From an uncultured Pseudomonadota bacterium (GTDB lineage: Bacteria; Pseudomonadota; Alphaproteobacteria; Rs-D84): DNA of 64,000 nt. The notes beneath the pieces were generated by a model, which ran no database searches, was not told the origin of the DNA, and saw only the letters and a list, made by a program, of their open reading frames with translations. The stretch covers positions 12,197 to 76,196 of the forward strand of contig CACXVH010000001.1 in the NCBI GenBank assembly GCA_902771095.1, in the 5' to 3' direction. Positions 6,241 through 64,000 of the stretch are shown one piece after another. Made by a program: the position numbers and the translations under genes. Numbering within the stretch: the stretch's first letter is position 1; each line of letters begins with the position of its first letter.

Positions 6241-8511
6241 TTAATGCAATGGTTCCAAGATTTTTATTTCATTAGTATTTGGATTCAAAACGCATGGTGT
6301 CCCAGAATAACCCATAATTGCGTGATGAGATGGAATTAAAAATTCTGGTAATGGCGATGCTTCACCCATTGTAACTTTTTCGTACAATTTTTTCTCGATA
6401 TCTGTTTTGTTCAAGAACCATCTTTCTTGATCTGCTTCAATTGGACGATGATACCAACCCTGGTAAATAACGAGTTGTTTACCAGTTTTTAATCGCATTA
6501 TTTCGTATTCGCTGAATATGGGTTCTTCTTTTGGTTTTTTGACTTCTTTACCATCTTCACCTTTTTCAATTTTTTCTGTTTTTTTCATGCCCATCATTTC
6601 AGAAAATCTTTTTGCTGTTTCTGGGTCGTTTTGTCGCAAAACAATTTTTGCCGCGGTTGTAGATATAATCGTATCAGCCGCATCGGCACCGTATTTTTCA
6701 CGAATTTGATGGATATCTTGACCAATTATTAAATAAGACACATTACATCCACGCCCCAAATCTGGTCCCTGGATAACAGCATCCAGTTTTTGCATTTTTG
6801 GCATTTCATCCAACACGAATAACACAGGGCAAGGTCCCATTTTTATTCCGTCTATGGTTTGATTAATATTGTGTGCCAATAAATAACTGGACATCAATTC
6901 AATAAATATTGCGGTAATCGGATTTAATGCCTGGGCATCAACCATATTGATTGATAAGTAAACAGTTACAGGTTTAAATTGACCATCCCTTGGATCAAGC
7001 ATTCCGCGTAAATCAGAAAAATGAAAATCAGAGTGAGATGTTCTGTTTCGAACAGCGGCATTACGGAATATTGCCAAACCTTCAACCATTGTTGAAAGTA
7101 TAGAACCACGTTCTTTATCTGGTGTGTTCGCCAATTGTGTTAATTCAGAAACCGCACGATGTGCGTATGCATAACGGCGCGCTTCTTCGACAGCATTTAA
7201 TAAAACATCTTTCATCGGGTCTGCCATCATAACCATTTGATCGCCCTGGCGTCTGCGTTCTTCCATTTCTTCGGCAATCGCAACCTGGCTTGATGTCAAC
7301 CAATCAAGTATCATTGCAAAAGATGCCTCACGCCCATGCCATGAATCAGGTATGTTTGCCCATGTCCCAACATGAACATAATTCGTTGTGTTTAATTCGC
7401 CGCGTTGCAACATTGAATAGGCAGCATATGCATTTGGATCGTTCATCATTGATAAATAATAATCGCCCAAAAGTGCGGCATCATCCTTGCTTAGTGTGCC
7501 ACTGTTTATGCGGGAATAGAAATAATCGTCTGCCTTGGCGCGTTCTATCTTTGATACGATAAAATTTACCAATCCTGATAATCCGGCGCGTCCAGTATTC
7601 GCCCAGTGTGGGTCTGCATTTGCGCCCTTGCTGTCTGGAACCAAAACCTTGGCCATAGAATCAATATACAAATCGCGCTGTTCCGGATTATAAGGAAGAT
7701 GTTCTGGTGATAATGGATTCCATGATGGATAATATATCCCGCGTGCCGGGTCATCTTGCCCCGCCCAATTCATAATAAACACAGGTCCCACCGTCGAACG
7801 ATACCCAGATGTCAACTGTTTTAATTCTGGTTTTGGGTCATTAATAATCATTGAAACTGTATCGCAATCAAGAATTGTTGGTATTACAACACCGGCGGTT
7901 TTACCAGTTCCTGGAGGTGCCACACACAAAGTAGATAATGCTTCATCAAACATCAATGGTTTGTTTTCACCTTTGTATTTAAAGTATCCCAATACCATCA
8001 TAAAACCATTGAAAAGCCCTTCTTTGTTTTTAAAGTTTGTTCCCATCTTTTTTATATCATCAGCATTTGCCTTGCGCGCAGATTTTTCATCATAGTTATC
8101 TTTGCCGGCAGGATTAAATTCTGATTTTAATGTATCGTCTGCCAAGAAATAATATACAATTACAGGTATCAGTGGTGTCACACATGCAAAATCTGGGTTA
8201 TGAACAGTCCGTGATAACCAATACGGAATTTCCGCGATAACAGACATCCCCAATGTTGAAAACATATTTTTTATATACAGCCAAACCCAATGTGCAGATG
8301 CGGGGCCCCATCCATAACGCCACACATGTTCAACCGCAAAAGATAATCCAAAAGCAAAGGCGCATATCAACCACACCCCGATATTCCATCGGATGTTCCA
8401 AAATTTGCGCGCCACAGGTGCCTGTTCGTGTTCTTTGTATTTTGTTGAATCAAAGATACTTAAACCCTTGCCTGAACCACTGCCTGAGAAAAGGTTGAAC
8501 TTTATTTCCAT
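6241..8511 (-). CDS. Type IV secretion coupling protein, VirD4/TraG family (T4CP)
   Basis: 756 aa from the internal start MEIKF (the track ORF extends to 8580). N-terminal TM helices. Walker A VAPPGTGKTAGVVIPTILD matches the TraG/VirD4 pattern (APTRSGKGVGxVIPxLL). Walker B-like VLFVLDEMP and the LIIGQD motif are present. Length is typical of T4CPs. Confidence 0.7.
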   Translation of the reverse strand: MEIKFNLFSGSGSGKGLSIFDSTKYKEHEQAPVARKFWNIRWNIGVWLICAFAFGLSFAVEHVWRYGWGPASAHWVWLYIKNMFSTLGMSVIAEIPYWLSRTVHNPDFACVTPLIPVIVYYFLADDTLKSEFNPAGKDNYDEKSARKANADDIKKMGTNFKNKEGLFNGFMMVLGYFKYKGENKPLMFDEALSTLCVAPPGTGKTAGVVIPTILDCDTVSMIINDPKPELKQLTSGYRSTVGPVFIMNWAGQDDPARGIYYPSWNPLSPEHLPYNPEQRDLYIDSMAKVLVPDSKGANADPHWANTGRAGLSGLVNFIVSKIERAKADDYFYSRINSGTLSKDDAALLGDYYLSMMNDPNAYAAYSMLQRGELNTTNYVHVGTWANIPDSWHGREASFAMILDWLTSSQVAIAEEMEERRRQGDQMVMMADPMKDVLLNAVEEARRYAYAHRAVSELTQLANTPDKERGSILSTMVEGLAIFRNAAVRNRTSHSDFHFSDLRGMLDPRDGQFKPVTVYLSINMVDAQALNPITAIFIELMSSYLLAHNINQTIDGIKMGPCPVLFVLDEMPKMQKLDAVIQGPDLGRGCNVSYLIIGQDIHQIREKYGADAADTIISTTAAKIVLRQNDPETAKRFSEMMGMKKTEKIEKGEDGKEVKKPKEEPIFSEYEIMRLKTGKQLVIYQGWYHRPIEADQERWFLNKTDIEKKLYEKVTMGEASPLPEFLIPSHHAIMGYSGTPCVLNPNTNEIKILEPLH

Positions 8512-8564
8512 GGTTGCTATTATATCACAAAAATAGAGATTTTTATAATATAAAAGATTAAAAA

Positions 8565-9224
8565 ATGCAAAATGTGCCAAGAATATATTTGAACGAAAAT
8601 TTGGAATCTGGAAAAAGTTTTCCGATTGATAAAGATGTTGTTCATTATCTGCGTCGTGTAATGCGGCGGGATAATTGTTTGGTCTTTAATAAAGGCATAG
8701 AATATACCGCCATACTAAGTGATGATAACAAAAGTATAATTATTGGTGAAAAAACGAATCGAATTGATCCATCCAATGATATTGTTTTTTATTTTGCACC
8801 AATTAAGAAAATAGATGAAATGTTAAATATGGTGACACAAATGGGGGTTGCGGTATTACAACCTGTGATAACCGAACGTACAGTTGCCAATCATATAAAT
8901 TGGGTGCGTCAGAAAAAAATTATTGTTGAAGCATCAGAACAATCGAATCGCAACAGTATCCCAGAATTAAGAGAACCAATTAAATTCGTTGATTTAGATT
9001 TAAAAAATTTAATTGTTGCAGATGAACGTTTTGCACACGAATTAAAAGTAGAAAAAAAACAAATAAAAACGAATCGCATTTTTGTTGGCCCCGAAGGGGG
9101 CTTTTCCCCGAAAGAATTTGAAAAAATGGATGTGGCAGGGGTTTGTAGTTTGTCTTTGGGTAAAACTATTTTGCGTGCCGAAGTGGCGGCTGTGGTTGCG
9201 ATATCAAAGGTGTTAAATAAATGA
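8565..9224 (+). CDS. rsmE: 16S rRNA (uracil1498-N3)-methyltransferase RsmE
   Basis: 219 aa. N-terminal PRIYL motif and C-terminal GPEGGFS ... ILR-AE-A block are characteristic of RsmE (SPOUT family). Confidence 0.85.
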   Translation: MQNVPRIYLNENLESGKSFPIDKDVVHYLRRVMRRDNCLVFNKGIEYTAILSDDNKSIIIGEKTNRIDPSNDIVFYFAPIKKIDEMLNMVTQMGVAVLQPVITERTVANHINWVRQKKIIVEASEQSNRNSIPELREPIKFVDLDLKNLIVADERFAHELKVEKKQIKTNRIFVGPEGGFSPKEFEKMDVAGVCSLSLGKTILRAEVAAVVAISKVLNK

Positions 9225-14203: not shown

Positions 14204-17200
14204 ATGAGAAACATCGTCAAAATACTTAGTTTATTGTCAATAATTGCCGTAATTCCGGCATCTTTTGCGGCTACTTCGCGTGTCAGTGTGACAAGTAAGG
14301 CATCGCCGCGTTTGCCGTCTATTGCGACCCGGTTGGTGTCTGGAACGGTGACAGGAACAACCACAACTTCGTCTACGGCTGCATATTATGGCGACAGCGA
14401 ATGTATTGAAAAATATACCGACTGTATCAAGGCAGATGATGTTTGTGGTTCTGATATGCAAGAATGTACGACAAATGTTTTGTTCCACGGACAAATGGCA
14501 AATTGTTTAAGTGTTTTGTATCAATGCTCTTCATCTGGTATTAACGCATTGTTTGGAACAACTGCGATAAACGCGTTGTCTAATGTTGCGGAATCGCATA
14601 CAATACCATCTGCGACCCGCAGTGGCGCGACAGAGGTTGTTGTCGATAGATATACATATCCGGCAAATGGTTCTGTATTGGGTCAATTGATTATCGGTGC
14701 CGGTATTACAAATAAATTAACAACCGAACAATGTGTCCGTCGTTATACAAATTGTTTGCAACGCGATGATATTTGTGGTGCTGATTTTGAATTGTGCACA
14801 TCGGCCAAGACATTTAAGAAGCAGGCATTGCTTTGTGATTCGACATTACAACGTTGCCAAGAAACCGGTAAAACACAGTTATTTGGTTCTGTTGCGAACG
14901 CAAATAATTTAACATATGCTGGTGATTCCAGAATTGGCACTTTGGTTGCCGAAGGGGCATCCACAGCGGCATTGAACGCGGTTAAGACCTGTCAAAAGGT
15001 AACAGATAACTGTTTGGTTAACGCGTGTGCAAAAAATCCATTAAGTTGTGTCGAAGGGACCAGCTTGGCATCAATCGACGCAGCCAATATTATTGCCGAA
15101 GGAACTGGTGCTTTGACAACTTCCCAGGTTATGCATGATGGTGTTGAAACAGCCAGTGCTTCGGATGTTCGTAAATTGTTAAAGACCGCGTGTTTGGAAA
15201 CAATCGGTTCGAACAGATATTGCCATATGACATATCGTGAAAAAGTTCCTTCTGACCGTGAATTGGGAGATCCAGATTTACAAGAAGAAGTATTTTCATT
15301 GGCTTATTCTGCACGTAAAAGTTATGCAAATACCAAGATTCAAGAAGCAATGAAAAAATTCGATACCAAGGCAAAGAATTCTTGTGTTGAAACAATCAAA
15401 GAATGTGCAATGCGTTCTTGCGGTGGGGGACTTGGTTCTGTGTGTTATACAAGGTCTAAATCTGGTGATGGTGTGCATGTGAACGATACCAGAACTTATG
15501 GTGATATTTTGTCTGGGTGTTCTGCGATTGTAAATGCTGATGCAAATTGTATCTATGCTGCGACATCTGCCGGAACAGATGGATACACATATACATATTA
15601 TGATGAAGATGGTTCAACATTTAGTACTTTGTTCCCATCTTATAATGAATCCGTATCTGATCCGATTGGTGCGGTTGCGACATTGAATTCTATACTCTCT
15701 ACATCTTATAATCCTGCGGCGATTGAAAATATGAAAAAACAATGTCAAACGATTGCTCTTTCTTGTGTAAAGGCCATGTGCGGTAAAGAATATGTTAATT
15801 GCTATCGCAGCAGAACAGATATTGTTTCTGGAACTTATGATACTGGTAATGCGAGATTGGATCGTAGCATGAATAAGATGGGCGGTGTCCTGGATTACAA
15901 TATTGTTATCGGTTTGTGTATGAATACGGTGAAAACATCATCTGTATGTGAAGAGCATTTGAAGATAGCAATTGCGGATCAATGGCCAGATGATAGAAGT
16001 GATACAACTTCATGGAATGGGTACACATCTGTTCGTGAAGCATGGCGTGGTGCGAATTCAACAGAAGTCGCAGCATACGAAGGTAAAGGTATCGTTGTTG
16101 CTTGTGCTGCTTCAAGTATTCAACAACTTGCTTCAACAGTAGCGGCTTTGGTCGGTGGAGAAGATGCAGCAGATTGTACAGGCACTATGGAACCGCTTGT
16201 TAACAGCGAAGGAATGACATATTGTGATCAGTCCGTGATCGATTCAGATACCGGGTGTATATATGATCAACCAGTTTACCAATCACAAACGGAATATTTG
16301 TTGACTAATGCTGGTACATCTTTGTTCCAAACATTGTTAGCGGATGTTGAAAAAGAAGTTCAGGCGATGTACAATGCCAAATTAAACAAAGAGCAACGTG
16401 TTTGTATGGCTAATAATAATGGTGGAATTATGGGTAACAAAGAAAGTGGTTCTACATTTTTGTGGGTAAAGTTGAGAAATAGCAAGGTACCAAAGAACTA
16501 TGTTTCGAAAGGTTTAACCACAAAACAATTCGTTGAATCAAATGATTTGTATGGTTCGTTCTGTCGTGCAAGAATTACTGTGCAATCTGACGACAAAGAT
16601 ATCCAAGATTTGTTGAAAAATAATTCTGTGGCATACTTTGCGGTTGGTGATTCATTTACCTGTGGTTCTTGGATAAGCGATGCTGATTTGCGCAAGATTT
16701 CGGATACAGTTGGTAACCGTGAATTGTGCAAACAGGGTTATGGTCAATGGGTTGATGGCGAATGTAAGGGCAGCAAATTATCAACCAAAGAGAAGATTGC
16801 TTATGCCTGGGGCACAGTCGCACCTGCGTTGGCTGGAACAGGAATTGGTTTGGGGTTGACTGAAAGTGGTTTACTTGGGGGATGGATGAATAGTGCTGAT
16901 TCTAAATTAAATGATGAGGCGACGAGAGGGAGAAGCAGAAACAGTTGTATAAATTATGCTAATTCGGCAAATACCGCATCTGATTTAAGCTTGTGTGAAA
17001 GTTATTTAAATTCTGCTGAGACATTGTGTGAAGAAGTCGGTGGTAATAGTAATCTTTGTTCACAATCGATACAAGGTAACAATGATGAAACAAAGTTGAA
17101 AGATTGTAAAAATAAAGCATTGATTGTCAAAGATGAATGTACATCGGCATATAAATCAAATATGAAAACAAATACGGCGGCACGTGTCACGATTCCAATT

Positions 17201-17389
17201 GTTACAGGGTTTGCTGCTGGTGGTTTGGGTGCTGGTATAACTGCTTCGGTTATTAAACAGAACAAAGAAAATATTAAAAATGAAGCGGCACAACAATGGA
17301 TGGATGAAATCGGTGAACATATCCAATGCTATATTGGCACCGAAGAATTGGGAACATACGGCGATGTCGTAAGTATCGAATTAGATTAA
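14204..17389 (+). CDS. Large secreted cysteine-rich repeat protein with C-terminal glycine-zipper/TM anchor
   Basis: 1061 aa. Sec signal peptide (AVIPASFA|AT). At least two tandem internal repeats of about 110 aa with spaced Cys (ECIEKYTDCIKADDVCGSDMQECT.. / QCVRRYTNCLQRDDICGADFELCT..). C-terminal hydrophobic Gly-rich segments (GTGIGLGLTESGLLGG; IPIVTGFAAGGLGAGITASVI) and a short tail. No known domain recognised. Confidence 0.5.
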   Translation: MRNIVKILSLLSIIAVIPASFAATSRVSVTSKASPRLPSIATRLVSGTVTGTTTTSSTAAYYGDSECIEKYTDCIKADDVCGSDMQECTTNVLFHGQMANCLSVLYQCSSSGINALFGTTAINALSNVAESHTIPSATRSGATEVVVDRYTYPANGSVLGQLIIGAGITNKLTTEQCVRRYTNCLQRDDICGADFELCTSAKTFKKQALLCDSTLQRCQETGKTQLFGSVANANNLTYAGDSRIGTLVAEGASTAALNAVKTCQKVTDNCLVNACAKNPLSCVEGTSLASIDAANIIAEGTGALTTSQVMHDGVETASASDVRKLLKTACLETIGSNRYCHMTYREKVPSDRELGDPDLQEEVFSLAYSARKSYANTKIQEAMKKFDTKAKNSCVETIKECAMRSCGGGLGSVCYTRSKSGDGVHVNDTRTYGDILSGCSAIVNADANCIYAATSAGTDGYTYTYYDEDGSTFSTLFPSYNESVSDPIGAVATLNSILSTSYNPAAIENMKKQCQTIALSCVKAMCGKEYVNCYRSRTDIVSGTYDTGNARLDRSMNKMGGVLDYNIVIGLCMNTVKTSSVCEEHLKIAIADQWPDDRSDTTSWNGYTSVREAWRGANSTEVAAYEGKGIVVACAASSIQQLASTVAALVGGEDAADCTGTMEPLVNSEGMTYCDQSVIDSDTGCIYDQPVYQSQTEYLLTNAGTSLFQTLLADVEKEVQAMYNAKLNKEQRVCMANNNGGIMGNKESGSTFLWVKLRNSKVPKNYVSKGLTTKQFVESNDLYGSFCRARITVQSDDKDIQDLLKNNSVAYFAVGDSFTCGSWISDADLRKISDTVGNRELCKQGYGQWVDGECKGSKLSTKEKIAYAWGTVAPALAGTGIGLGLTESGLLGGWMNSADSKLNDEATRGRSRNSCINYANSANTASDLSLCESYLNSAETLCEEVGGNSNLCSQSIQGNNDETKLKDCKNKALIVKDECTSAYKSNMKTNTAARVTIPIVTGFAAGGLGAGITASVIKQNKENIKNEAAQQWMDEIGEHIQCYIGTEELGTYGDVVSIELD

Positions 17390-46244: not shown

Positions 46245-46859
46245 ATGAAAAAACTTATTGCCGGTTCATTGGCAGTATTAGTAGCCGCGCCAGCTTTTGC
46301 AGGTGGGCAAGGTTATAAACAAGAAACAACAAATTTTCTTGGTTGGGACATTTTACCTTATGTCGCAGTACGTGGTGGTGCTACATATGGTAATTTGAAC
46401 TATAATTTCAATGATACCAAAAAAAGCGTGTCACAAGATTTGTATCAGGTGCGTGCCGCTCTTGGTTTAAGTATGTATGATACTGCACGTTTTGAAATCG
46501 AAGGTTCTTTCTTTACAAGGGGAAAGGATACCAAAGATTTTGGAACAATAGAAAATGTAAAGGTCACATCTGATAATATAGAATTGATGGCTAATGCATA
46601 TATGGATATCGGGCGTTTCCACTATATCCAACCATTTGCTGGTATCGGTGCCGGTATGGCATTTATTGATACAAAAGCAAGTGTAGCAGGTATATCTGAT
46701 AAAAAAGATAATACAAGATTTTCTGCAATGGCGACATTGGGCTTAGCAATGCCATTTGGGTGCTATGCTGTGGATGTAGCCGCACGTTATAACTATATTG
46801 ATGTTGCTTCTGGAATGCATGATTTCAGTGGAGATATCGGTATTCGTTATATGTTCTAA
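46245..46859 (+). CDS. Small outer-membrane beta-barrel protein (OmpA-like/opacity family)
   Basis: 204 aa. Signal peptide. Alternating hydrophobic beta-strand pattern. C-terminal aromatic residue (IGIRYMF). Confidence 0.6.
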   Translation: MKKLIAGSLAVLVAAPAFAGGQGYKQETTNFLGWDILPYVAVRGGATYGNLNYNFNDTKKSVSQDLYQVRAALGLSMYDTARFEIEGSFFTRGKDTKDFGTIENVKVTSDNIELMANAYMDIGRFHYIQPFAGIGAGMAFIDTKASVAGISDKKDNTRFSAMATLGLAMPFGCYAVDVAARYNYIDVASGMHDFSGDIGIRYMF

Positions 46860-46947
46860 GCTTTCCTTGTCTCGCTTTGAAATCCCGTTTTTACGGGATT
46901 TTTTTGTTGTTAGATGTTCAAATTATGTGCTAGTATAACTTAATGTT

Positions 46948-48519
46948 ATGAAAAGATTCCTTATACTTGTTTCATTGTTTTGCTTATGTACTGTTGCGCA
47001 TGCTGCGCAATACTTTGAAGCAGGGGTGAATTATTCTGGGATTTCTACTTTTTCAGATTCAATTGTTTATATCGATAGTGGGGCAATTGTTTCTTCAACA
47101 GGTAATAATATAATAATGAACGAACCTGTTTATTTATATAACAGTGGGCATATAGACGGAACAATAAACACAAATGGAAATACTTTGGTTGTTTATAATT
47201 CTGGACTGATGAATGGCGGGATAAATCCAAACGGTGGTTTGGTAAAACAGGTTATTACTGCGCCATCAGAAATAACAAATATTGGTATGCCCATGGGACA
47301 AAGTCCTGTTGTCGCAATAGAAAATTATGATAATTTTGATTTTAATAATTTGGATAGTATAAATGCGCAATCTTTTATCATAACTGATTCATCGATAGTT
47401 ATGGATAATTTTTCAGATTGGCAAATGTGTCCAGAAAATATAGAACTTAATGGCAATGTTTCTTTGATTATAAATAATCCGGACAGTGTCAATTCTGGTG
47501 AAGTTATAAAATACACAAAAAGCGGCACCAGAATTTTTGTTAAAATCAATAAGTTAGATAAAATGTATAAACCTGTATTAAAAGTTTCTAATGGTGGTAT
47601 TGTTTTGGATATCGTGCGTGAAACTGATTATAGTGTCATTTTTGGTAATGGTAATAGCGATGAGGATAAAAGAAATACTGCATTAGAAACAATAAGAGAT
47701 AATCATCCGAATGATAAATTATTAAAGGCTTTGGATGCAGCAGACAATTTGGGTGAAATAAAAAGATTAGAAAATTTATCGTATAGGTTTAATCATGGCA
47801 TTTTGTTGCGACCAATTAAAATGATAACGAAATTTTCAATGTCTGATTTAATAACCAATGAAAAAGATTTAGGGGTTGGTGTTATTCCGTATTATATCAT
47901 GTCAGATAAAATGGATGCAGTGGATGGGCATTTGTATATCGGGCATAAACACGATAATTTGTATTTCTATGCTGGGGTTAATTTGAATAAGTTTGAATAT
48001 AGTGATGAATTAAATGATTTTTCAGGGTTGTCTTATGGAATGGATTTTCAATCCAGACAAACATTTGATAAATTTTGGATTAACGAAGTATTGGGTTTTT
48101 CTTTGACAAGTTTCAAGGCAGATTATATTTCGATGGATGGCAAGATAAAAAATAATCCTTTGGGATTTTCTTGGTATGGTGATTTGTCTGTTGGGTATGA
48201 TTTTAATACGGATGAAAATATAATACTGACGCCAATTATGGGGCTTTCCTATCAACCGTATAATATAGCAGATGTTTCAGAAACAGATTCTTTTGTGCAT
48301 ATTGGAGCCGATGCAAAATACTTTTTTGTTGTGGATGGAATCAAATATGAATATGTTCTATCTGCTGCATACGGCACAAATGGTGATTTATTTGCTAATT
48401 TAAAAATAGGTTTTACATCTGTAATGGATGAAGCAGGTGTGTCGTTAAACACAGGTGTATTGAAAGATGATTTTGATTATCATTACAAAATATCACTAAA
48501 CGCAAAAGTAATGTTTTAA
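46948..48519 (+). CDS. Outer-membrane protein, autotransporter-like (beta-helix-like passenger plus C-terminal barrel)
   Basis: 523 aa. Signal peptide. N-terminal Asn/Gly-rich degenerate repeats (NSGxIDGTINTNGNTLVVYNSG). C-terminal amphipathic strands ending in the terminal Phe typical of OMP barrels. Confidence 0.45.
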   Translation: MKRFLILVSLFCLCTVAHAAQYFEAGVNYSGISTFSDSIVYIDSGAIVSSTGNNIIMNEPVYLYNSGHIDGTINTNGNTLVVYNSGLMNGGINPNGGLVKQVITAPSEITNIGMPMGQSPVVAIENYDNFDFNNLDSINAQSFIITDSSIVMDNFSDWQMCPENIELNGNVSLIINNPDSVNSGEVIKYTKSGTRIFVKINKLDKMYKPVLKVSNGGIVLDIVRETDYSVIFGNGNSDEDKRNTALETIRDNHPNDKLLKALDAADNLGEIKRLENLSYRFNHGILLRPIKMITKFSMSDLITNEKDLGVGVIPYYIMSDKMDAVDGHLYIGHKHDNLYFYAGVNLNKFEYSDELNDFSGLSYGMDFQSRQTFDKFWINEVLGFSLTSFKADYISMDGKIKNNPLGFSWYGDLSVGYDFNTDENIILTPIMGLSYQPYNIADVSETDSFVHIGADAKYFFVVDGIKYEYVLSAAYGTNGDLFANLKIGFTSVMDEAGVSLNTGVLKDDFDYHYKISLNAKVMF

Positions 48520-59241: not shown

Positions 59242-60129
59242 ATGTCCTGTAAGAATTGTTTTTTTGCTGTGATGGTCGGGTGTTTTTCATGGTCTGCTTT
59301 TGCCGAAATGCCCCAGGTTGTAACTTCTGAGGTTTTTGGTGATTCTCATCAGGAAGTGACAGAATACGTCCAAGAAGATTATGTTGAACCAGTTAGGGAA
59401 GAAGTGCCTGTGTGGCCATTGCCGGGGTCTGAGGCAGATGTTGAAATCGTTTGTGACGAAACAACTGGTTGTGGCGGTGAAGAAAAGATTGTCAACAGGA
59501 TTGGTTCCGGATTGATTATTGAAAACAATATTAATACTGTTGGGACAGGGTGGTCTGGTGGTCCAAATATTTCAAATGGCTATATGATACCCGAAGGTTT
59601 TGACTATGAATGTGCAAATGGTGCGGAAATGCCGTTAATGCGTCGTGAAATGATGGAAGATGATGGTGGTTCTGTGTTGGCTGTATCGCGCAGTGCAAGA
59701 AAAACTTGTGGTATGGCGGCAAATGCAGATTCTTATGCTGTGTTTGCACAACGCGCTGGATTTGCACCGGAAAAAACTTGTAATTCGGTAAACGGTATTG
59801 AAAATGGTGGTGTCGCTACAGAGGTTAGTGTTAACGGTTATATCGAAGAAGAAATCAATGACCCTGTTCAAGACCAGGTTCGTTCGTGGGTCGTTGCAGA
59901 TGGTCAAACATTACGCGAAGTTTTGCAATCTTGGTGTGATAAAGCGGGCTGGGATTTGGTCTGGACAACTGCGCGTGAATACCCGATTGAAGCAAGTGCT
60001 GTGTTCAAAGGCCGTTTTATGGATGTCGCTTCTGCTTTGGTTCGTAATTTTGAACGCGCAACACCAATTCCATATGCAAAATTTTACAAAGGTAATCGTG
60101 TAGTGGTCGTTTCAACTTCGGAAGAATAA
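59242..60129 (+). CDS. Secreted TcpQ/PilL-like protein (type IVb pilus / conjugative-pilus secretin partner family)
   Basis: 295 aa. Signal peptide (SWSAFA|EM). The C-terminal approximately 90 aa (WVVADGQTLREVLQSWCDKAGWDLVWTT ... FKGRFMDVASALV) match the W..G.TLR..L..W....GW.L.W pattern I recall for the TcpQ/PilL family. The N-terminal half is acidic/Gly-rich with Cys. Confidence 0.45.
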   Translation: MSCKNCFFAVMVGCFSWSAFAEMPQVVTSEVFGDSHQEVTEYVQEDYVEPVREEVPVWPLPGSEADVEIVCDETTGCGGEEKIVNRIGSGLIIENNINTVGTGWSGGPNISNGYMIPEGFDYECANGAEMPLMRREMMEDDGGSVLAVSRSARKTCGMAANADSYAVFAQRAGFAPEKTCNSVNGIENGGVATEVSVNGYIEEEINDPVQDQVRSWVVADGQTLREVLQSWCDKAGWDLVWTTAREYPIEASAVFKGRFMDVASALVRNFERATPIPYAKFYKGNRVVVVSTSEE

Positions 60130-60164
60130 ATTGCAGAAATATAGAAAGAGGGAAAGGGGAAAAC

Positions 60165-61796
60165 ATGAAAATGCGTTTAAATATATTCTTGGTTGGGTTG
60201 TTTTTTAGTGTGGTGTTGTCTGGGTGCACATTGCATGAATCAGCCAAAGTGTCCGCAGAAGTGGACCAAAATTTTGTCAACGCGTATGAGGCCTTTGAAA
60301 TGGCAAAAAATCCCCGTGCCAAGGTTTATGATGGTGATACTGTTTCTATGTCCGAAGGTGTTTGGTTGGGTAATAAATCTACACTATTGGAACACAAGAA
60401 TAGTTTGCCATCAAAATTTGAAACAGACACAGGTATTACTATATTGTTAAATGAACCTGTGACTTTACAGGTTTTGGCAAACGACATTAATTCTATTACT
60501 GGTATCCCGGTTAAAATAGACAGTCAGGTTGATAGTGAAAAATTAAGAAAGACCGTTGATGTTGCGTATACTGGAAAACTATCTGGTTTGCTTTCCCAGA
60601 TTGCGACAGATTTAGATTTGTTGTGGTATTATGACAAAGATTCAATCGTGTTTTATGAAACAGAAACAAGAACTTATACATTATATGCGCTGGGAACAGA
60701 TGTGTCTTATCAATCGTCTGTCCAAACAGATAGCGGTAATCAGGTATCATTAGAATCTACATTAAAAGAATGGGACGAAGTAGAAGCGACAATCAATTCT
60801 ATTATAAACAATTCAAAAAATGCTCAATTTACTGTATCGCGCAGTTTGGGAACAATAACCGTAACTGCTTCACCTTCGGTGTTGGCGCGTGTTAGTGATT
60901 ATATTGCGAAACAGAATAAACGACTTTCACAATTGGTAACGATTGATGTAAAAGTGTTACAGGTATCTTTATCTAATGAATCTGCGTTTGGTTTGAATTT
61001 AGCGGCGGCGATAAATTCTGCGTCTGGTTTAAATTTGGTTGCCAATCCAAAGAATAATTTGGCATCCACAGAAACATCTTCTATGAATATCGCGGTTTTG
61101 TCTAATGCAGTATCTGCTTTGACTGGGGCGACACATATTGATGCATCTGGTAATGTTGTCGAAGGTGCTTATACAAATGACCAAATCAATAATGGTTCAA
61201 TGGCACGAATCGCCGGAACAAATGCTTTGATTGAGGCATTGGCAAAGCAGGGTAAGGTGTCTTTGGTGACCAATGTTGGTGTGACAACGCGTAATAATCG
61301 TGTTGCGCCTGTGACGAATACAAAAACTACTGGATATATTAAACGTTTTGAATCGCGAACATTTACGACTGTGGAATCAAGTACAGTTGACCAAGACGAT
61401 TTGGAAACAGGATTTTCGATGCAATTGTTGCCGAATGTTTTGGAAAATGGCAAGATTTTGTTGCTGTTCAAAATGTCTGTGCGTGAATTGTTAAAGATGT
61501 CAACTCAGACAATTGGTGCGGTGACTTTGCAGTTGCCAGAGGTTGAAGAACGTTCGTTCATGCAAGAAGTTATTATGGAGTCCGGTCAGATGTTGGTCGT
61601 GTCTGGATTTGAAAAGCAAAAGAACAACGATACAAGATACGGTTTGGGTGATGCGGACTTTATGGCGTTGTCTGGGTCTCGTGATACGGCGGCTTCGCGT
61701 GAAGTGTTGGTTGTTATCTTGACACCGCAGGTTTTGGTTAGCCCGATGGATGCTGAACGCAGTATCCAACAACACTGGGGTACCCCTTTGAATTAA
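60165..61796 (+). CDS. Lipoprotein secretin (type IVb-pilus-type, PilN/TcpC/BfpB-like)
   Basis: 543 aa. Lipobox VLSGC|T. Central N-domain-like repeats. C-terminal secretin-domain pattern GQMLVVSGFEKQ ... YGLGDADFMALSGSRDTAASREVLVVILTPQVL (compare GG ... vP.LGdIP.lG.LF ... ELliFitP). Confidence 0.6.
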   Translation: MKMRLNIFLVGLFFSVVLSGCTLHESAKVSAEVDQNFVNAYEAFEMAKNPRAKVYDGDTVSMSEGVWLGNKSTLLEHKNSLPSKFETDTGITILLNEPVTLQVLANDINSITGIPVKIDSQVDSEKLRKTVDVAYTGKLSGLLSQIATDLDLLWYYDKDSIVFYETETRTYTLYALGTDVSYQSSVQTDSGNQVSLESTLKEWDEVEATINSIINNSKNAQFTVSRSLGTITVTASPSVLARVSDYIAKQNKRLSQLVTIDVKVLQVSLSNESAFGLNLAAAINSASGLNLVANPKNNLASTETSSMNIAVLSNAVSALTGATHIDASGNVVEGAYTNDQINNGSMARIAGTNALIEALAKQGKVSLVTNVGVTTRNNRVAPVTNTKTTGYIKRFESRTFTTVESSTVDQDDLETGFSMQLLPNVLENGKILLLFKMSVRELLKMSTQTIGAVTLQLPEVEERSFMQEVIMESGQMLVVSGFEKQKNNDTRYGLGDADFMALSGSRDTAASREVLVVILTPQVLVSPMDAERSIQQHWGTPLN

Positions 61797-62190: not shown

Positions 62191-62790
62191 ATGTTATATG
62201 TATTTGCAATCATTATTTCTTATTTATTGGGTTCTGTCCCTTTTGGTTTAATCATCGCAAAGTTGTTTAACAAGGGCGATATCAGAAAAGTTGGTTCTGG
62301 TAATATCGGTGCAACTAATGTTATGCGGGTCGGTGGTTTGCGTCTTGCTGGTTTGGTTTGGTTGCTTGATATGTTCAAGGCGATATTTGCGGTCTTAATC
62401 GGACAATATATTGGTGGTGATGCTTTTTCGGTGTGGTGTGGTTTTTTTGCGATAATTGGGCATTGCTTTCCGATTTGGTTGGGCTTTCATGGGGGCAAAG
62501 GTGTATCTGCGCTTTTTGGTGTGTTGATGGCGGTGAATCCGATTCTTTTTATTATATGTGGCGTTGAATGGTTAATTGTGGCTTTGTCCACAGGTTTTTC
62601 TTCGGCGGGTGCATTGGTTGTTTTTTGTATAATGCCTGTGCTCGGATTTTTCATAAGTTTCGGTGTAGGAATTGGATTTTTGGCGATATCTTTGCTTTGC
62701 GCTTGGCGGCTAATCTTTTTTTGTATTTATAATTTGTTTTTAACTCTATTTTGTGGTATAATGTGTATCATAAAGAGGAATGTAGTATGA
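62191..62790 (+). CDS. plsY: Glycerol-3-phosphate acyltransferase PlsY
   Basis: 199 aa. GSGNIGATN motif, HxFP ... GGKG motif (HCFPIWLGFHGGKGV), 5 TM helices. Confidence 0.85.
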   Translation: MLYVFAIIISYLLGSVPFGLIIAKLFNKGDIRKVGSGNIGATNVMRVGGLRLAGLVWLLDMFKAIFAVLIGQYIGGDAFSVWCGFFAIIGHCFPIWLGFHGGKGVSALFGVLMAVNPILFIICGVEWLIVALSTGFSSAGALVVFCIMPVLGFFISFGVGIGFLAISLLCAWRLIFFCIYNLFLTLFCGIMCIIKRNVV

Positions 62791-63548
62791 AATATTTTGT
62801 TTCTTTTGTCGTTTTGTCTATGTTGGTTTCTGGGGTAAATGCTGCCCAAAATGCCCGTCCGACAATGGTTGGAAAGATGGTGACAACAGCACCACGTTAT
62901 ACTGCTTCTGTGAACCAGTTGAATGGTGTCGGTATTAATCCATCAAATATTAATTCTGTGGCAGTAGAAACAGAGGTCGATAGACGCGAAGCAGAAAGAA
63001 ATGCGTGTATAAACAACAATATCGGTGTTGGGAATACTTTCGTCTGGGCATCCAAGTACAGTGATGTTTCTAATTATGCCAGTATGAACGAAGATGTTAA
63101 AAATCCAGAAAATAATGTTTGTTTTGTCCGTGTGGAATTAAAATCTGATGATGCAAAAATATCTGTGTCTGATGTTCCTGCAAAGTATTTTATGTGGGGC
63201 GAGAACATAGAATGCGGTTCTTGGGCAAATGAAAAAGATATGGAAAAAAGAATCTTGGATGCCAAAAAAGGTGCCCGTATTGGCGGTATAGTTGCTAGTA
63301 CCGTTGGTGGTGCTGGTCTTGGTGTTGGTATTATGGAAGCATTCGGAAATAGATTGATTGATGGCAAAGTCATGGGACAAAAATCATTAACCCCAACGGA
63401 ATTATACAGATCTCAATTGTTGGTATATAAAAATAAGAATAAATCAGAATATGACAGAATTTGTAACGCATTAAAGGTATTGGATAATAATAATGACACG
63501 ACTGTCAAAGGGGTTGATGTGAAAAGTTTAATAAGCGAATGTCGTTAA
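62787..63548 (+). CDS. Secreted Cys-containing protein, paralog of the C-terminal module of the 1061-aa protein
   Basis: 252 aa from the internal ATG (RBS AAAGAGGAA). Signal peptide. Blocks CINNNIGVGNTFVW, VCFVRVELKSDDAKISV and YFMWGENIECGSWANEKDMEKRIL, followed by a glycine-zipper segment (GGIVASTVGGAGLGVGIMEAFG). These align with residues approximately 730-880 of the 14204..17389 product. Confidence 0.5.
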   Translation: MKYFVSFVVLSMLVSGVNAAQNARPTMVGKMVTTAPRYTASVNQLNGVGINPSNINSVAVETEVDRREAERNACINNNIGVGNTFVWASKYSDVSNYASMNEDVKNPENNVCFVRVELKSDDAKISVSDVPAKYFMWGENIECGSWANEKDMEKRILDAKKGARIGGIVASTVGGAGLGVGIMEAFGNRLIDGKVMGQKSLTPTELYRSQLLVYKNKNKSEYDRICNALKVLDNNNDTTVKGVDVKSLISECR

Positions 63549-63574: not shown

Positions 63575-64000
63575 ATGAAAAAGTTTTTAATTTTTGCTTT
63601 GTTGATTTTACCAGTGGCATCTTTTGGTGCTTCATCGGTTCGTGTTTTGGGAAGTGGTGCTGCAACACCAGCGGCTGGGGCGAAAACCACAACCACCAGT
63701 GCGGCAAAGGTTACCCCTGCAAAAGTGACGGCGGCGAAACCATCGGCTGCATCAACTGCATCAACTGCTACGACTTCGCGTATCGGAACAATTCGTGTAA
63801 AACCAAAGACGTCAACTGGAACAATATCGGCTGGGACATCTGGCGGGACAACCAGCACGGGTTCAAGATTTCCTGTGATTACGCCTGCACATTCTTACAA
63901 GGTTGTTAATACACAACAGGCGGCGGGTAATACTGGTGGCAGTAGTGGCGGAACACAAGTTGTTGGTGTAGATGATGACCCGCGTTTCGACATGATACAC
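63575..64000 (+). CDS. Secreted Ala/Thr/Gly-rich low-complexity protein (5' partial in window)
   Basis: ATG at 63575 after RBS AAGGAAT. Signal peptide MKKFLIFALLILPVASFG|AS. Reiterated AAKVTPAKVTAAKPSAAST-type low-complexity sequence. Runs off the window end. Confidence 0.45.
   Translation, partial: MKKFLIFALLILPVASFGASSVRVLGSGAATPAAGAKTTTTSAAKVTPAKVTAAKPSAASTASTATTSRIGTIRVKPKTSTGTISAGTSGGTTSTGSRFPVITPAHSYKVVNTQQAAGNTGGSSGGTQVVGVDDDPRFDMIH

Follow-up and report, generated by a model that had tools for sequence, protein, structure and literature searches.

This report concerns a 64,000-nt stretch of DNA (hereafter the window) from an uncultured alphaproteobacterium of the order Rs-D84 (GCA_902771095.1, contig CACXVH010000001.1, positions 12,197 to 76,196), and in particular two of its genes: a small gene of 253 codons near the end of the window and a gene for a large, cysteine-rich protein of 1061 aa, both listed with their parts in Table 1. 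The two products are ancient paralogs. Their common unit is a domain of about 100 aa that has not been described before, here referred to as the CG-W module, which is followed by a weakly hydrophobic glycine zipper. CG-W is a new, narrowly distributed domain family in an uncultured lineage: it is restricted to gut Alphaproteobacteria with small genomes (Candidatus Enterousia, order Rs-D84), in which the small and the large gene are each a single-copy, strongly conserved core gene.

A domain shared by the small and the large protein

The homology covers residues 68-194 of the small and 728-894 of the large protein. BLASTP aligns positions 70-185 of the small with 730-888 of the large protein at 28% identity (159 columns, 43.9 bits, E=5e-9). 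In Smith-Waterman alignment, the pair scores 120, and 400 shuffles give 42.8 ± 6.3 (z=12.3). When the glycine zipper is left out, the score is 106 vs 28.1 ± 5.3; because z stays high (14.7) without this glycine-rich segment, the match is not a composition effect. At the profile level, the two ortholog families (38 and 34 sequences) are matched by hhalign with a probability of 96% (E=4.3e-9, 123 columns). Their joint alignment has the invariant skeleton E..C..N.G...G.F.W...Y...C...S(DD)...YF.G...CG.W, and the family is defined by the module C...F-x-W...Y...C-x-R/V...SDD...YF-x-G...CG-W and a glycine zipper behind it, both of which are present in both window proteins. A profile hidden Markov model of the module, built from both families with these two window sequences included, matches the two proteins with 167 and 265 bits, and no further copy of the module was found within the window in a six-frame hmmsearch.

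The paralogy had been proposed in a sequence-only reading of this DNA on the basis of three colinear blocks. These all fall inside the BLASTP alignment, the glycine-rich segment comes next in both proteins, and the alignment called for as a check is significant in pairwise as well as in profile form. The same reading took the module for the C-terminal part of the large protein, which has to be revised: it is internal (aa 728-895 of 1061) and is followed by about 165 more residues that include a second zipper and a conserved hairpin. The description of the small gene as a stand-alone copy of the module also needs revision: the small protein is not a bare module, as it has its own conserved leader motif and a tail of 50-80 aa that recurs in a third class of family members (see below). 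Lastly, the structure prediction that had been suggested yields an alpha/beta core for the module (aa 60-165, pLDDT, i.e., predicted local distance difference test, 71-87), made up of helix 67-76, strands 85-89, 110-116 and 133-136, and helix 149-172. For the whole small protein, the mean pLDDT of the AlphaFold2 model was 71.3 with an alignment of 108 diverse sequences vs 57.5 with 38 close orthologs in a first run.

Both proteins are predicted to be exported, as they carry Sec-type (signal peptidase I) signal peptides, which also occur in the third class and indeed in all full-length family members; in the model of the small protein, this part forms a helix (residues 2-14). The signal peptide of the large protein ends with SFA before A, and Cys is absent at +1. 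Of "secreted and anchored", the wording of the earlier description, the signal peptides bear out the first part. Both proteins are probably membrane-associated, and surface exposure and anchoring are inferences.

Conserved and variable stretches alternate across the zippers in both proteins. Expressed as mean identity to the window protein (the measure used for all regions here), conservation in the small protein amounts to 69% in the module (100-102 aa), 68% in the zipper (35-38 aa) and 29% in the tail (49-81 aa), which carries two Cys in about 84% of members and is shared with the third class. The corresponding values among the 34 orthologs of the large protein are 76% for the module (105-110 aa), 72% for zipper B (35-45 aa), 63% for zipper A (24-25 aa) and 83% for the C-terminal hairpin (43-47 aa). 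The generic glycine-zipper motif, (G/A/S)xxxGxxxG or GxxxGxxx(G/S/T) within a hydrophobic segment, is present in the small protein as S171xxxG175xxxG179 and G177xxxG181 in IGGIVASTVGGAGLGVGIM. Every zipper is flanked on either side by conserved Cys, which number five in the small class (three in the module, two in the tail), six in the corresponding part of the third class, and 42 in the large protein.

Table 1. Features of the small and the large CG-W gene, with their control elements and the gene that follows the small one. Positions refer to the window.
Feature	Position	Strand	Description
Putative promoter-like element	62734-62762	+	read from the sequence: TTGTTT (62734-62739), 17-nt spacer, TGgTATAAT (62754-62762, extended -10)
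Shine-Dalgarno-like sequence	62773-62779	+	AAGAGGA, 7 nt 5' of ATG; identical in loci L001 and L005
Small CG-W protein gene	62787-63548	+	open reading frame, 253 aa + stop; ATG 62787, TAA 63546-63548
Predicted signal peptide, aa 1-19	62787-62843	+	MKYFVSFVVLSMLVSGVNA; predicted cleavage after VNA; lipobox Cys absent
Conserved leader motif, aa 20-46	62844-62924	+	A-x-x-A-R-P-x-M ... A-P-R-Y-T-A-S-V-N-Q-L; R24, R37, T39-S41 and Q44 invariant among small-protein orthologs (alignment A1)
Variable linker, aa 47-63	62925-62975	+	mean identity 11%, 15-50 aa across 108 members; pLDDT <50
CG-W module, aa 64-163	62976-63275	+	alpha/beta domain; invariant C74, C112, C143; SDD, YF and CGSW motifs
Glycine-zipper segment, aa 164-199	63276-63383	+	RIGGIVASTVGGAGLGVGIMEAFGN...GQK; pLDDT <50
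C-terminal tail, aa 200-253	63384-63545	+	predicted helical hairpin, pLDDT 87-96; sequence variable
Next gene (partial in window)	63575-64000	+	signal peptide, Ala/Thr-rich; outside the CG-W family; 173 aa in L001 (L001:10789-11310)
Large paralog	14204-17389	+	1061 aa: signal peptide, leader motif, ~640-aa Cys-rich region, then module and zippers; 42 conserved Cys
CG-W module of large protein, aa 728-832	16385-16699	+	C734, C787, C820; by homology to the small protein
Cys-loop insert, aa 833-860	16700-16783	+	RELCKQGYGxW..GxC; missing from some orthologs and from the small protein
Glycine zipper B, aa 861-895	16784-16888	+	aligned with the zipper of the small protein; ΔG +5.2
Hypervariable inter-zipper region, aa 896-994	16889-17185	+	mean identity 22%, 76-229 aa (34 orthologs)
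Glycine zipper A (aa 995-1018) and conserved C-terminal hairpin (aa 1019-1061)	17186-17386	+	...IGEHIQCYIGTEELGTYGDVVSIELD

The N-terminal region of the large protein (14204-16300, aa 60-700) has a repeated Cys spacing, and all these Cys are invariant in the 34 orthologs. C-x6-C-x6-C-x6-C-x12-C-x6-C occurs twice (aa 67-108 and 177-218) and C-x6-C-x4-C-x6/7-C three times (aa 263-282, 394-414 and 514-533). No Pfam or PDB relative of this region was found. Behind the signal peptides of the small, the large and the next-gene product (62844-62924, 14270-14350 and 63635-63700), an Arg-containing motif is followed some 10-15 residues on by (A/S)(P)R(Y/L/V)(T/P)x(S/I), e.g., ARP..GK...APRYTASV, TSRVSV..KASPRLPSIA and SSVRVLG...(ARVTPIK in relatives), respectively. 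Between the small and the large protein ('TSRVSV..ASPRLPSIA' in the latter), the similarity of this stretch is weak (hhalign E=1.7e-4 over 17 columns, probability 49%); the likeness in the next-gene product is one seen by eye. Judged from the sequence, the motif could be a common sorting or docking signal.

Distribution, architectures and conservation

The CG(S)W motif had also been put forward as the mark of a protein family, and the database search confirms this: 878 relatives of the small and 712 of the large protein were found, and those with a name belong to metagenome-assembled genomes labelled 'Alphaproteobacteria bacterium' and to Candidatus Enterousia. Among 1.84 billion representative proteins, the module profile has only 219 clusters (50% identity) at E<=1e-3 and 176 at E<=1e-10. 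Relatives are encoded by 111 stretches of GTDB species genomes, of which 80 loci were kept. Their titles include Ca. Enterousia, uncultured Alphaproteobacteria and 'Rickettsiales', and they come from human, ruminant, horse, bird and termite guts; Ca. Enterousia / Rs-D84 are gut and rumen Alphaproteobacteria. A protein identical to the product of the small gene (P0001) is present on 10 contigs, and in at least four genomes the small and the large gene are apparently on the same contig (matching longest contigs 81356, 128464, 391738 and 261885). No tblastn match that would indicate a mobile-element origin was found in phage or plasmid collections.

Neither the small nor the large protein has a Pfam or NCBIfam match at E<=1. 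When 108 family members were compared with Pfam, the glycine-rich segment produced noise and nothing else, with PF05433 touched by 3 of the 108 (E~0.04). Searches of PDB sequences with three profiles (A3, A2 and A5) returned nothing below E=0.5, Foldseek found no match for the module unit in PDB and BFVD, and the literature on Enterousia / Rs-D84 does not mention the family.

Three architectures were found. Small members (245-305 aa) consist of signal peptide, conserved leader, variable linker, module, zipper and a tail of 45-85 aa that usually has two Cys; large members (1035-1211 aa) have the module at about aa 700-870. In the rare third class (374-862 aa), the signal peptide is followed by unrelated N-terminal domains, which may be ankyrin repeats, a CarboxypepD_reg-like domain or Cys-rich repeats. 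A coiled coil and a zipper with a hairpin come next, ahead of a module, a zipper and a tail like those of the small protein. The hairpin at the first zipper has the motif 'GFEE(L/I)xC..G..IAD(F/W)(G/D)D.F.ISG', and by hhalign this zipper and hairpin have their homologous counterpart in the C-terminal 95 residues of the large protein (probability 80%, E=1.4e-5). Since the third class joins the same module, zipper and tail, the small protein is the minimal form of a cassette and more than a C-terminal fragment cut out of the large one. Of the 150 best clusters, about 14 belong to the third class, as do about 10 of 120 matches, and its genes are located at other loci (L085-L087; proteins P0380, P0347, P0381 and others). 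At L085 and L086, the gene comes after rho and near genes for a 1624-aa protein and an LRR_5 protein. In P0381, the first zipper has a weak IpaB_EvcA match (E=0.0086) that does not reach the curated cut-off.

The module is under strong purifying selection. Against five orthologs, the ratio of nonsynonymous to synonymous substitutions (dN/dS) is 0.09-0.16 for the whole small gene, 0.05-0.08 (about 0.07) for the module and 0.15-0.26 for the remainder. A module with a dN/dS of 0.05-0.08 is therefore not a fast-evolving surface antigen, so that the kind of selection implied by the surface reading of the earlier description does not apply. Over 71 loci, the median identity is 53% for the small protein, 60% for DnaA, 62% for DprA and 68% for PlsY.

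Surroundings of the small gene

The neighbourhood of the small gene is a housekeeping one and not a surface-protein island, as had been suggested from the Ala/Thr-rich gene that comes next. In all 80 loci, the order is (secretin, forward), rpsT (reverse), plsY, small gene, an optional gene, dprA and dnaA (all forward), and the order from secretin to dprA is conserved in at least 57 of the 80; an identical copy on an 81-kb contig has dprA and dnaA directly past the point where the window ends. The Ala/Thr-rich gene is present in 25 of 77 related loci, and elsewhere dprA is directly 3' of the small gene. Its product has a conserved start, 'A(P/S)SVR(V/M)LG', and end, 'DDPR(F/I)D...YV(Y/F)(I/M)W(I/V)EE' (DDPRFD...YVFMWVEE). 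No family match was found for it in Pfam or NCBIfam, apart from a weak match to the TUL4 lipoprotein (E=0.012) that is far below the cut-off, and it does not match the module. The large gene sits between thrS, a SPOR-domain gene and lpxD.

In the window, the plsY frame runs through the spacer and ends with a TGA (62788-62790) that overlaps the ATG of the small gene (ATGA). Loci L001 and L005 have 65 bp that the window lacks, right after ...GCTTGGCGGC (at ~62710; window 62700-62790 vs L001:9790-10015 and L005:3780-4015), and these encode the PlsY C-terminus HHENIVRLFSGKESKVVWKWKK up to its stop codon. In other species, the spacer between plsY and the small gene is 65-110 bp long and has a promoter-like element. 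The element of Table 1 is kept in L001 and L005; it was missed by a consensus scan, as its -35 has only 3 of 6 matches. Translational coupling of the small gene to plsY, suggested by the ATGA overlap, was rejected: the overlap arises from the window-specific 65-bp deletion. Be it a strain variant or an assembly error, the deletion probably leaves PlsY altered or damaged.

Two genes upstream of the small gene, a TcpQ-domain protein and the secretin are encoded (59242-61796). No other protein of the region is as conserved as the secretin, which has a median identity of 83% over 49 species, above ribosomal protein S20 (82%); for an outer-membrane protein, this level of conservation is unusual. 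The window as a whole encodes a classical diderm envelope: LpxD, LptF/G, LolA, an outer-membrane beta-barrel protein, an autotransporter, a penicillin-binding protein, LpoB, a SPOR protein and an M23 peptidase. The beta-barrel protein (204 aa) and an adjoining 523-aa protein with an autotransporter beta-domain (46245-48519) are its conventional surface or outer-membrane proteins. Further away, a VirD4/TraG-type coupling protein of 779 aa is encoded (6241-8580, reverse strand; genome ~0.9 Mb) beside a 393-aa protein without family match; the window reading frames scanned include no further gene for type IV secretion.

Proposed topology of the CG-W proteins and alternative readings

The CG-W family probably belongs to the cell envelope, and no function is assigned to it here. 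The reading that we favour, at a probability of about 0.42, is that of an exported, disulfide-bonded periplasmic CG-W domain with zippers in the outer membrane and/or in oligomers and with the variable parts beyond the zippers. Export would take the whole polypeptide through the inner membrane, with the CG-W domain folding in the periplasm and acquiring disulfides. The zippers, apparently too weakly hydrophobic to be reliable stop-transfer anchors, would be associated with the outer membrane and/or assemble into homo- or hetero-oligomers, like helices of the SlyB/YfgH type. The conserved module and the C-terminal hairpin would lie on the periplasmic side, while the exposed, fast-changing parts would be those beyond the zipper, i.e., the tail of the small protein, the inter-zipper region of the large one and the N-terminal domains of the third class. 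The family would then be an element, specific to this lineage, that structures or organises the envelope, with the small protein as its minimal form. In a narrower version, the zippers would be alpha-helical spans of the outer membrane, with the CG-W domain and the hairpin in the periplasm and with the inter-zipper loop, the small tail and the passengers of the third class (ankyrin, Cys-rich repeats) displayed on the surface. A disulfide-linked complex of small and large protein may form in this version, given the odd count of conserved Cys in the small class; as a whole, it is unlikely.

The comparison with SlyB concerns a possible mode of action and not family membership. SlyB, YfgH, OsmB and YiaD have glycine-zipper helices of low hydrophobicity in the outer membrane, which drive ring-like oligomers (bioRxiv 10.64898/2025.12.22.696046). 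Like these lipoproteins (PF05433 Rick_17kDa_Anti / 'glycine zipper 2TM'), the CG-W proteins appear to be exported and have a GxxxG-repeat segment of low hydrophobicity, in their case after the module. In contrast to them, the CG-W proteins lack a lipobox Cys (VNA before A in the small, SFA before A in the large protein), do not reach the PF05433 cut-off, and have one zipper of about 18-20 aa, or two that are 100-300 aa apart, in place of a tight hairpin of two transmembrane segments; the CG-W domain itself has no counterpart in SlyB-type lipoproteins. Similarly, the motif of oligomeric-channel glycine zippers (Kim et al. 2005, PNAS, as cited in bioRxiv 10.64898/2025.12.22.696046) is present in the small protein, and similar patterns occur in the zippers of the large one, which is a likeness of motif and not of family.

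Several points weigh against the favoured reading. The structure model is uninformative on the zipper (pLDDT <50, aa 169-196). The likeness to SlyB would be one of motif only, between lipoproteins and proteins that are neither lipoproteins nor matched by the Pfam glycine-zipper families. The tail is still under purifying selection (dN/dS 0.15-0.26), and we know of no mechanism that would carry the tail or a third-class N-terminal domain across the outer membrane. Moreover, on the scale of membrane-insertion free energy (ΔG) used below, the signal-peptide windows of the same proteins score +1.9 to +5.2, so that marginal segments can still insert, and a simple ΔG sum ignores position effects.

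The main rival is possible and yet the less probable choice: the proteins would be bitopic in the inner membrane, with a cleaved signal peptide, a periplasmic CG-W domain and a zipper that acts as a stop-transfer helix and may drive oligomers, leaving the tail and the inter-zipper region in the cytoplasm. For a signal peptide, a domain and a hydrophobic segment in succession, this is the simplest arrangement; the zipper of the small protein and zipper A of the large one have cores 18-23 residues long (Kyte-Doolittle hydropathy 1.6-1.7), basic residues flank the zipper (KKGAR before, K/K after), and transmembrane glycine zippers are common in oligomeric inner-membrane proteins (Kim et al. 2005). 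However, the summed Hessa ΔG of the zippers is +2.7 to +5.9 kcal/mol (+3.4 in the small protein) vs -1.8 to +2.3 for the PlsY helices of the same window, values that are marginal for a membrane span. The zippers are probably not stop-transfer anchors of the inner membrane, because these sums are positive; because spanning would place the module in the cytoplasm in the third class, where an exported N-terminal domain precedes zipper A, and in the periplasm in the small and the large protein, although it is the same Cys-containing domain; because conserved Cys pairs lie beyond the zippers; and because hypervariable regions such as those beyond the zippers are more typical of exposed than of cytoplasmic segments. 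Cys pairs together with such variability (22% identity, 76-229 aa) would be unusual in the cytoplasm.

If the zippers were to serve display, the CG-W module, zipper and tail would form a cassette that fixes variable passengers, e.g., surface adhesins or proteins for interaction with a partner, to the surface of a partner-dependent cell, with the small protein as a form that lacks a passenger or is accessory. The third class, which joins the same cassette to unrelated N-terminal domains, agrees with this, as does the prediction that Rs-D84 depend on a partner and have many unexplained membrane proteins (PMC12306168). The idea is nevertheless decidedly unlikely: the third class is rare, the universal small and large forms are conserved like housekeeping genes, and no outer-membrane translocation device is linked to the CG-W genes. 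Nor do the CG-W proteins resemble a conventional autotransporter, as Pfam detects no C-terminal beta-barrel (Autotransporter / OMP_b-brl) in them and their C-terminal part is predicted to be helical, whereas the true autotransporter of the window (46948-48519) is detected by the same search.

A very improbable reading is that of a pore-forming toxin or secreted effector, delivered, e.g., via type IV secretion, with a glycine zipper that inserts into target membranes. It draws on the glycine zipper of the membrane-damaging type VII secretion effector LXG-T2 of Streptococcus suis (PMC12955049), on the VirD4-like protein at 6241-8580, and on the weak IpaB_EvcA match over the first zipper of one third-class member (E=0.0086). 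Although a hydrophobic glycine-zipper segment, likely the membrane-active part, is common to both, toxins of the LXG-T2 type are polymorphic and have dedicated secretion and paired immunity genes, whereas the CG-W genes are single-copy and syntenic, encode Sec signal peptides and are under purifying selection. The marks of a polymorphic toxin (secretion linkage, polymorphism and an adjacent immunity gene) were not found: the locus is a fixed housekeeping one in 80 species, dN/dS is 0.05-0.16, the small gene is flanked by plsY and dprA or by the lineage-specific Ala/Thr-rich gene and not by an immunity-like gene, and phage or plasmid matches are lacking in the collections searched. Just as improbable is an accessory role in the TcpQ-secretin machine encoded nearby or in DNA uptake (dprA downstream). 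The conserved order from secretin to dprA and the 83% median identity of the secretin would suit such a role, but rpsT, on the opposite strand, and plsY separate the small gene from the secretin, the small gene carries a promoter-like element of its own, proximity means little where, as in these small genomes, gene order is kept throughout the region, and no homology to known pilotins or pilus proteins was found in Pfam and NCBIfam.

Cysteine-rich, disulfide-cross-linked envelope proteins are known from Chlamydia as OmcA and OmcB. Like these, the large paralog is big, predicted to be exported, rich in Cys (42 conserved) and encoded in the reduced genome of a host-associated bacterium, but Chlamydia is of a different phylum, and no sequence or Pfam similarity between the two was found.

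Enterousia and its relatives in Rs-D84 have genomes of 0.75-1.0 Mb without tricarboxylic acid cycle, respiration and standard transporters, and they are predicted to depend on a partner (PMC12306168). Since both genes are kept across species with such very small genomes and are conserved about like DnaA, the small and the large protein are probably important for the envelope or the lifestyle of these bacteria. The present analysis delimits a domain family without Pfam, NCBIfam or PDB relative, defines its three architectures and proposes a model for its topology. Even if the helical outer-membrane model is wrong, two 'hypothetical' core genes can be annotated as one exported envelope family. 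If that model is true, it would add to the very few alpha-helical anchors known in the outer membrane, and surface display, if true, would mean that a gut alphaproteobacterium dependent on a partner has a helical system for anchoring and display in the outer membrane of a kind not described before.

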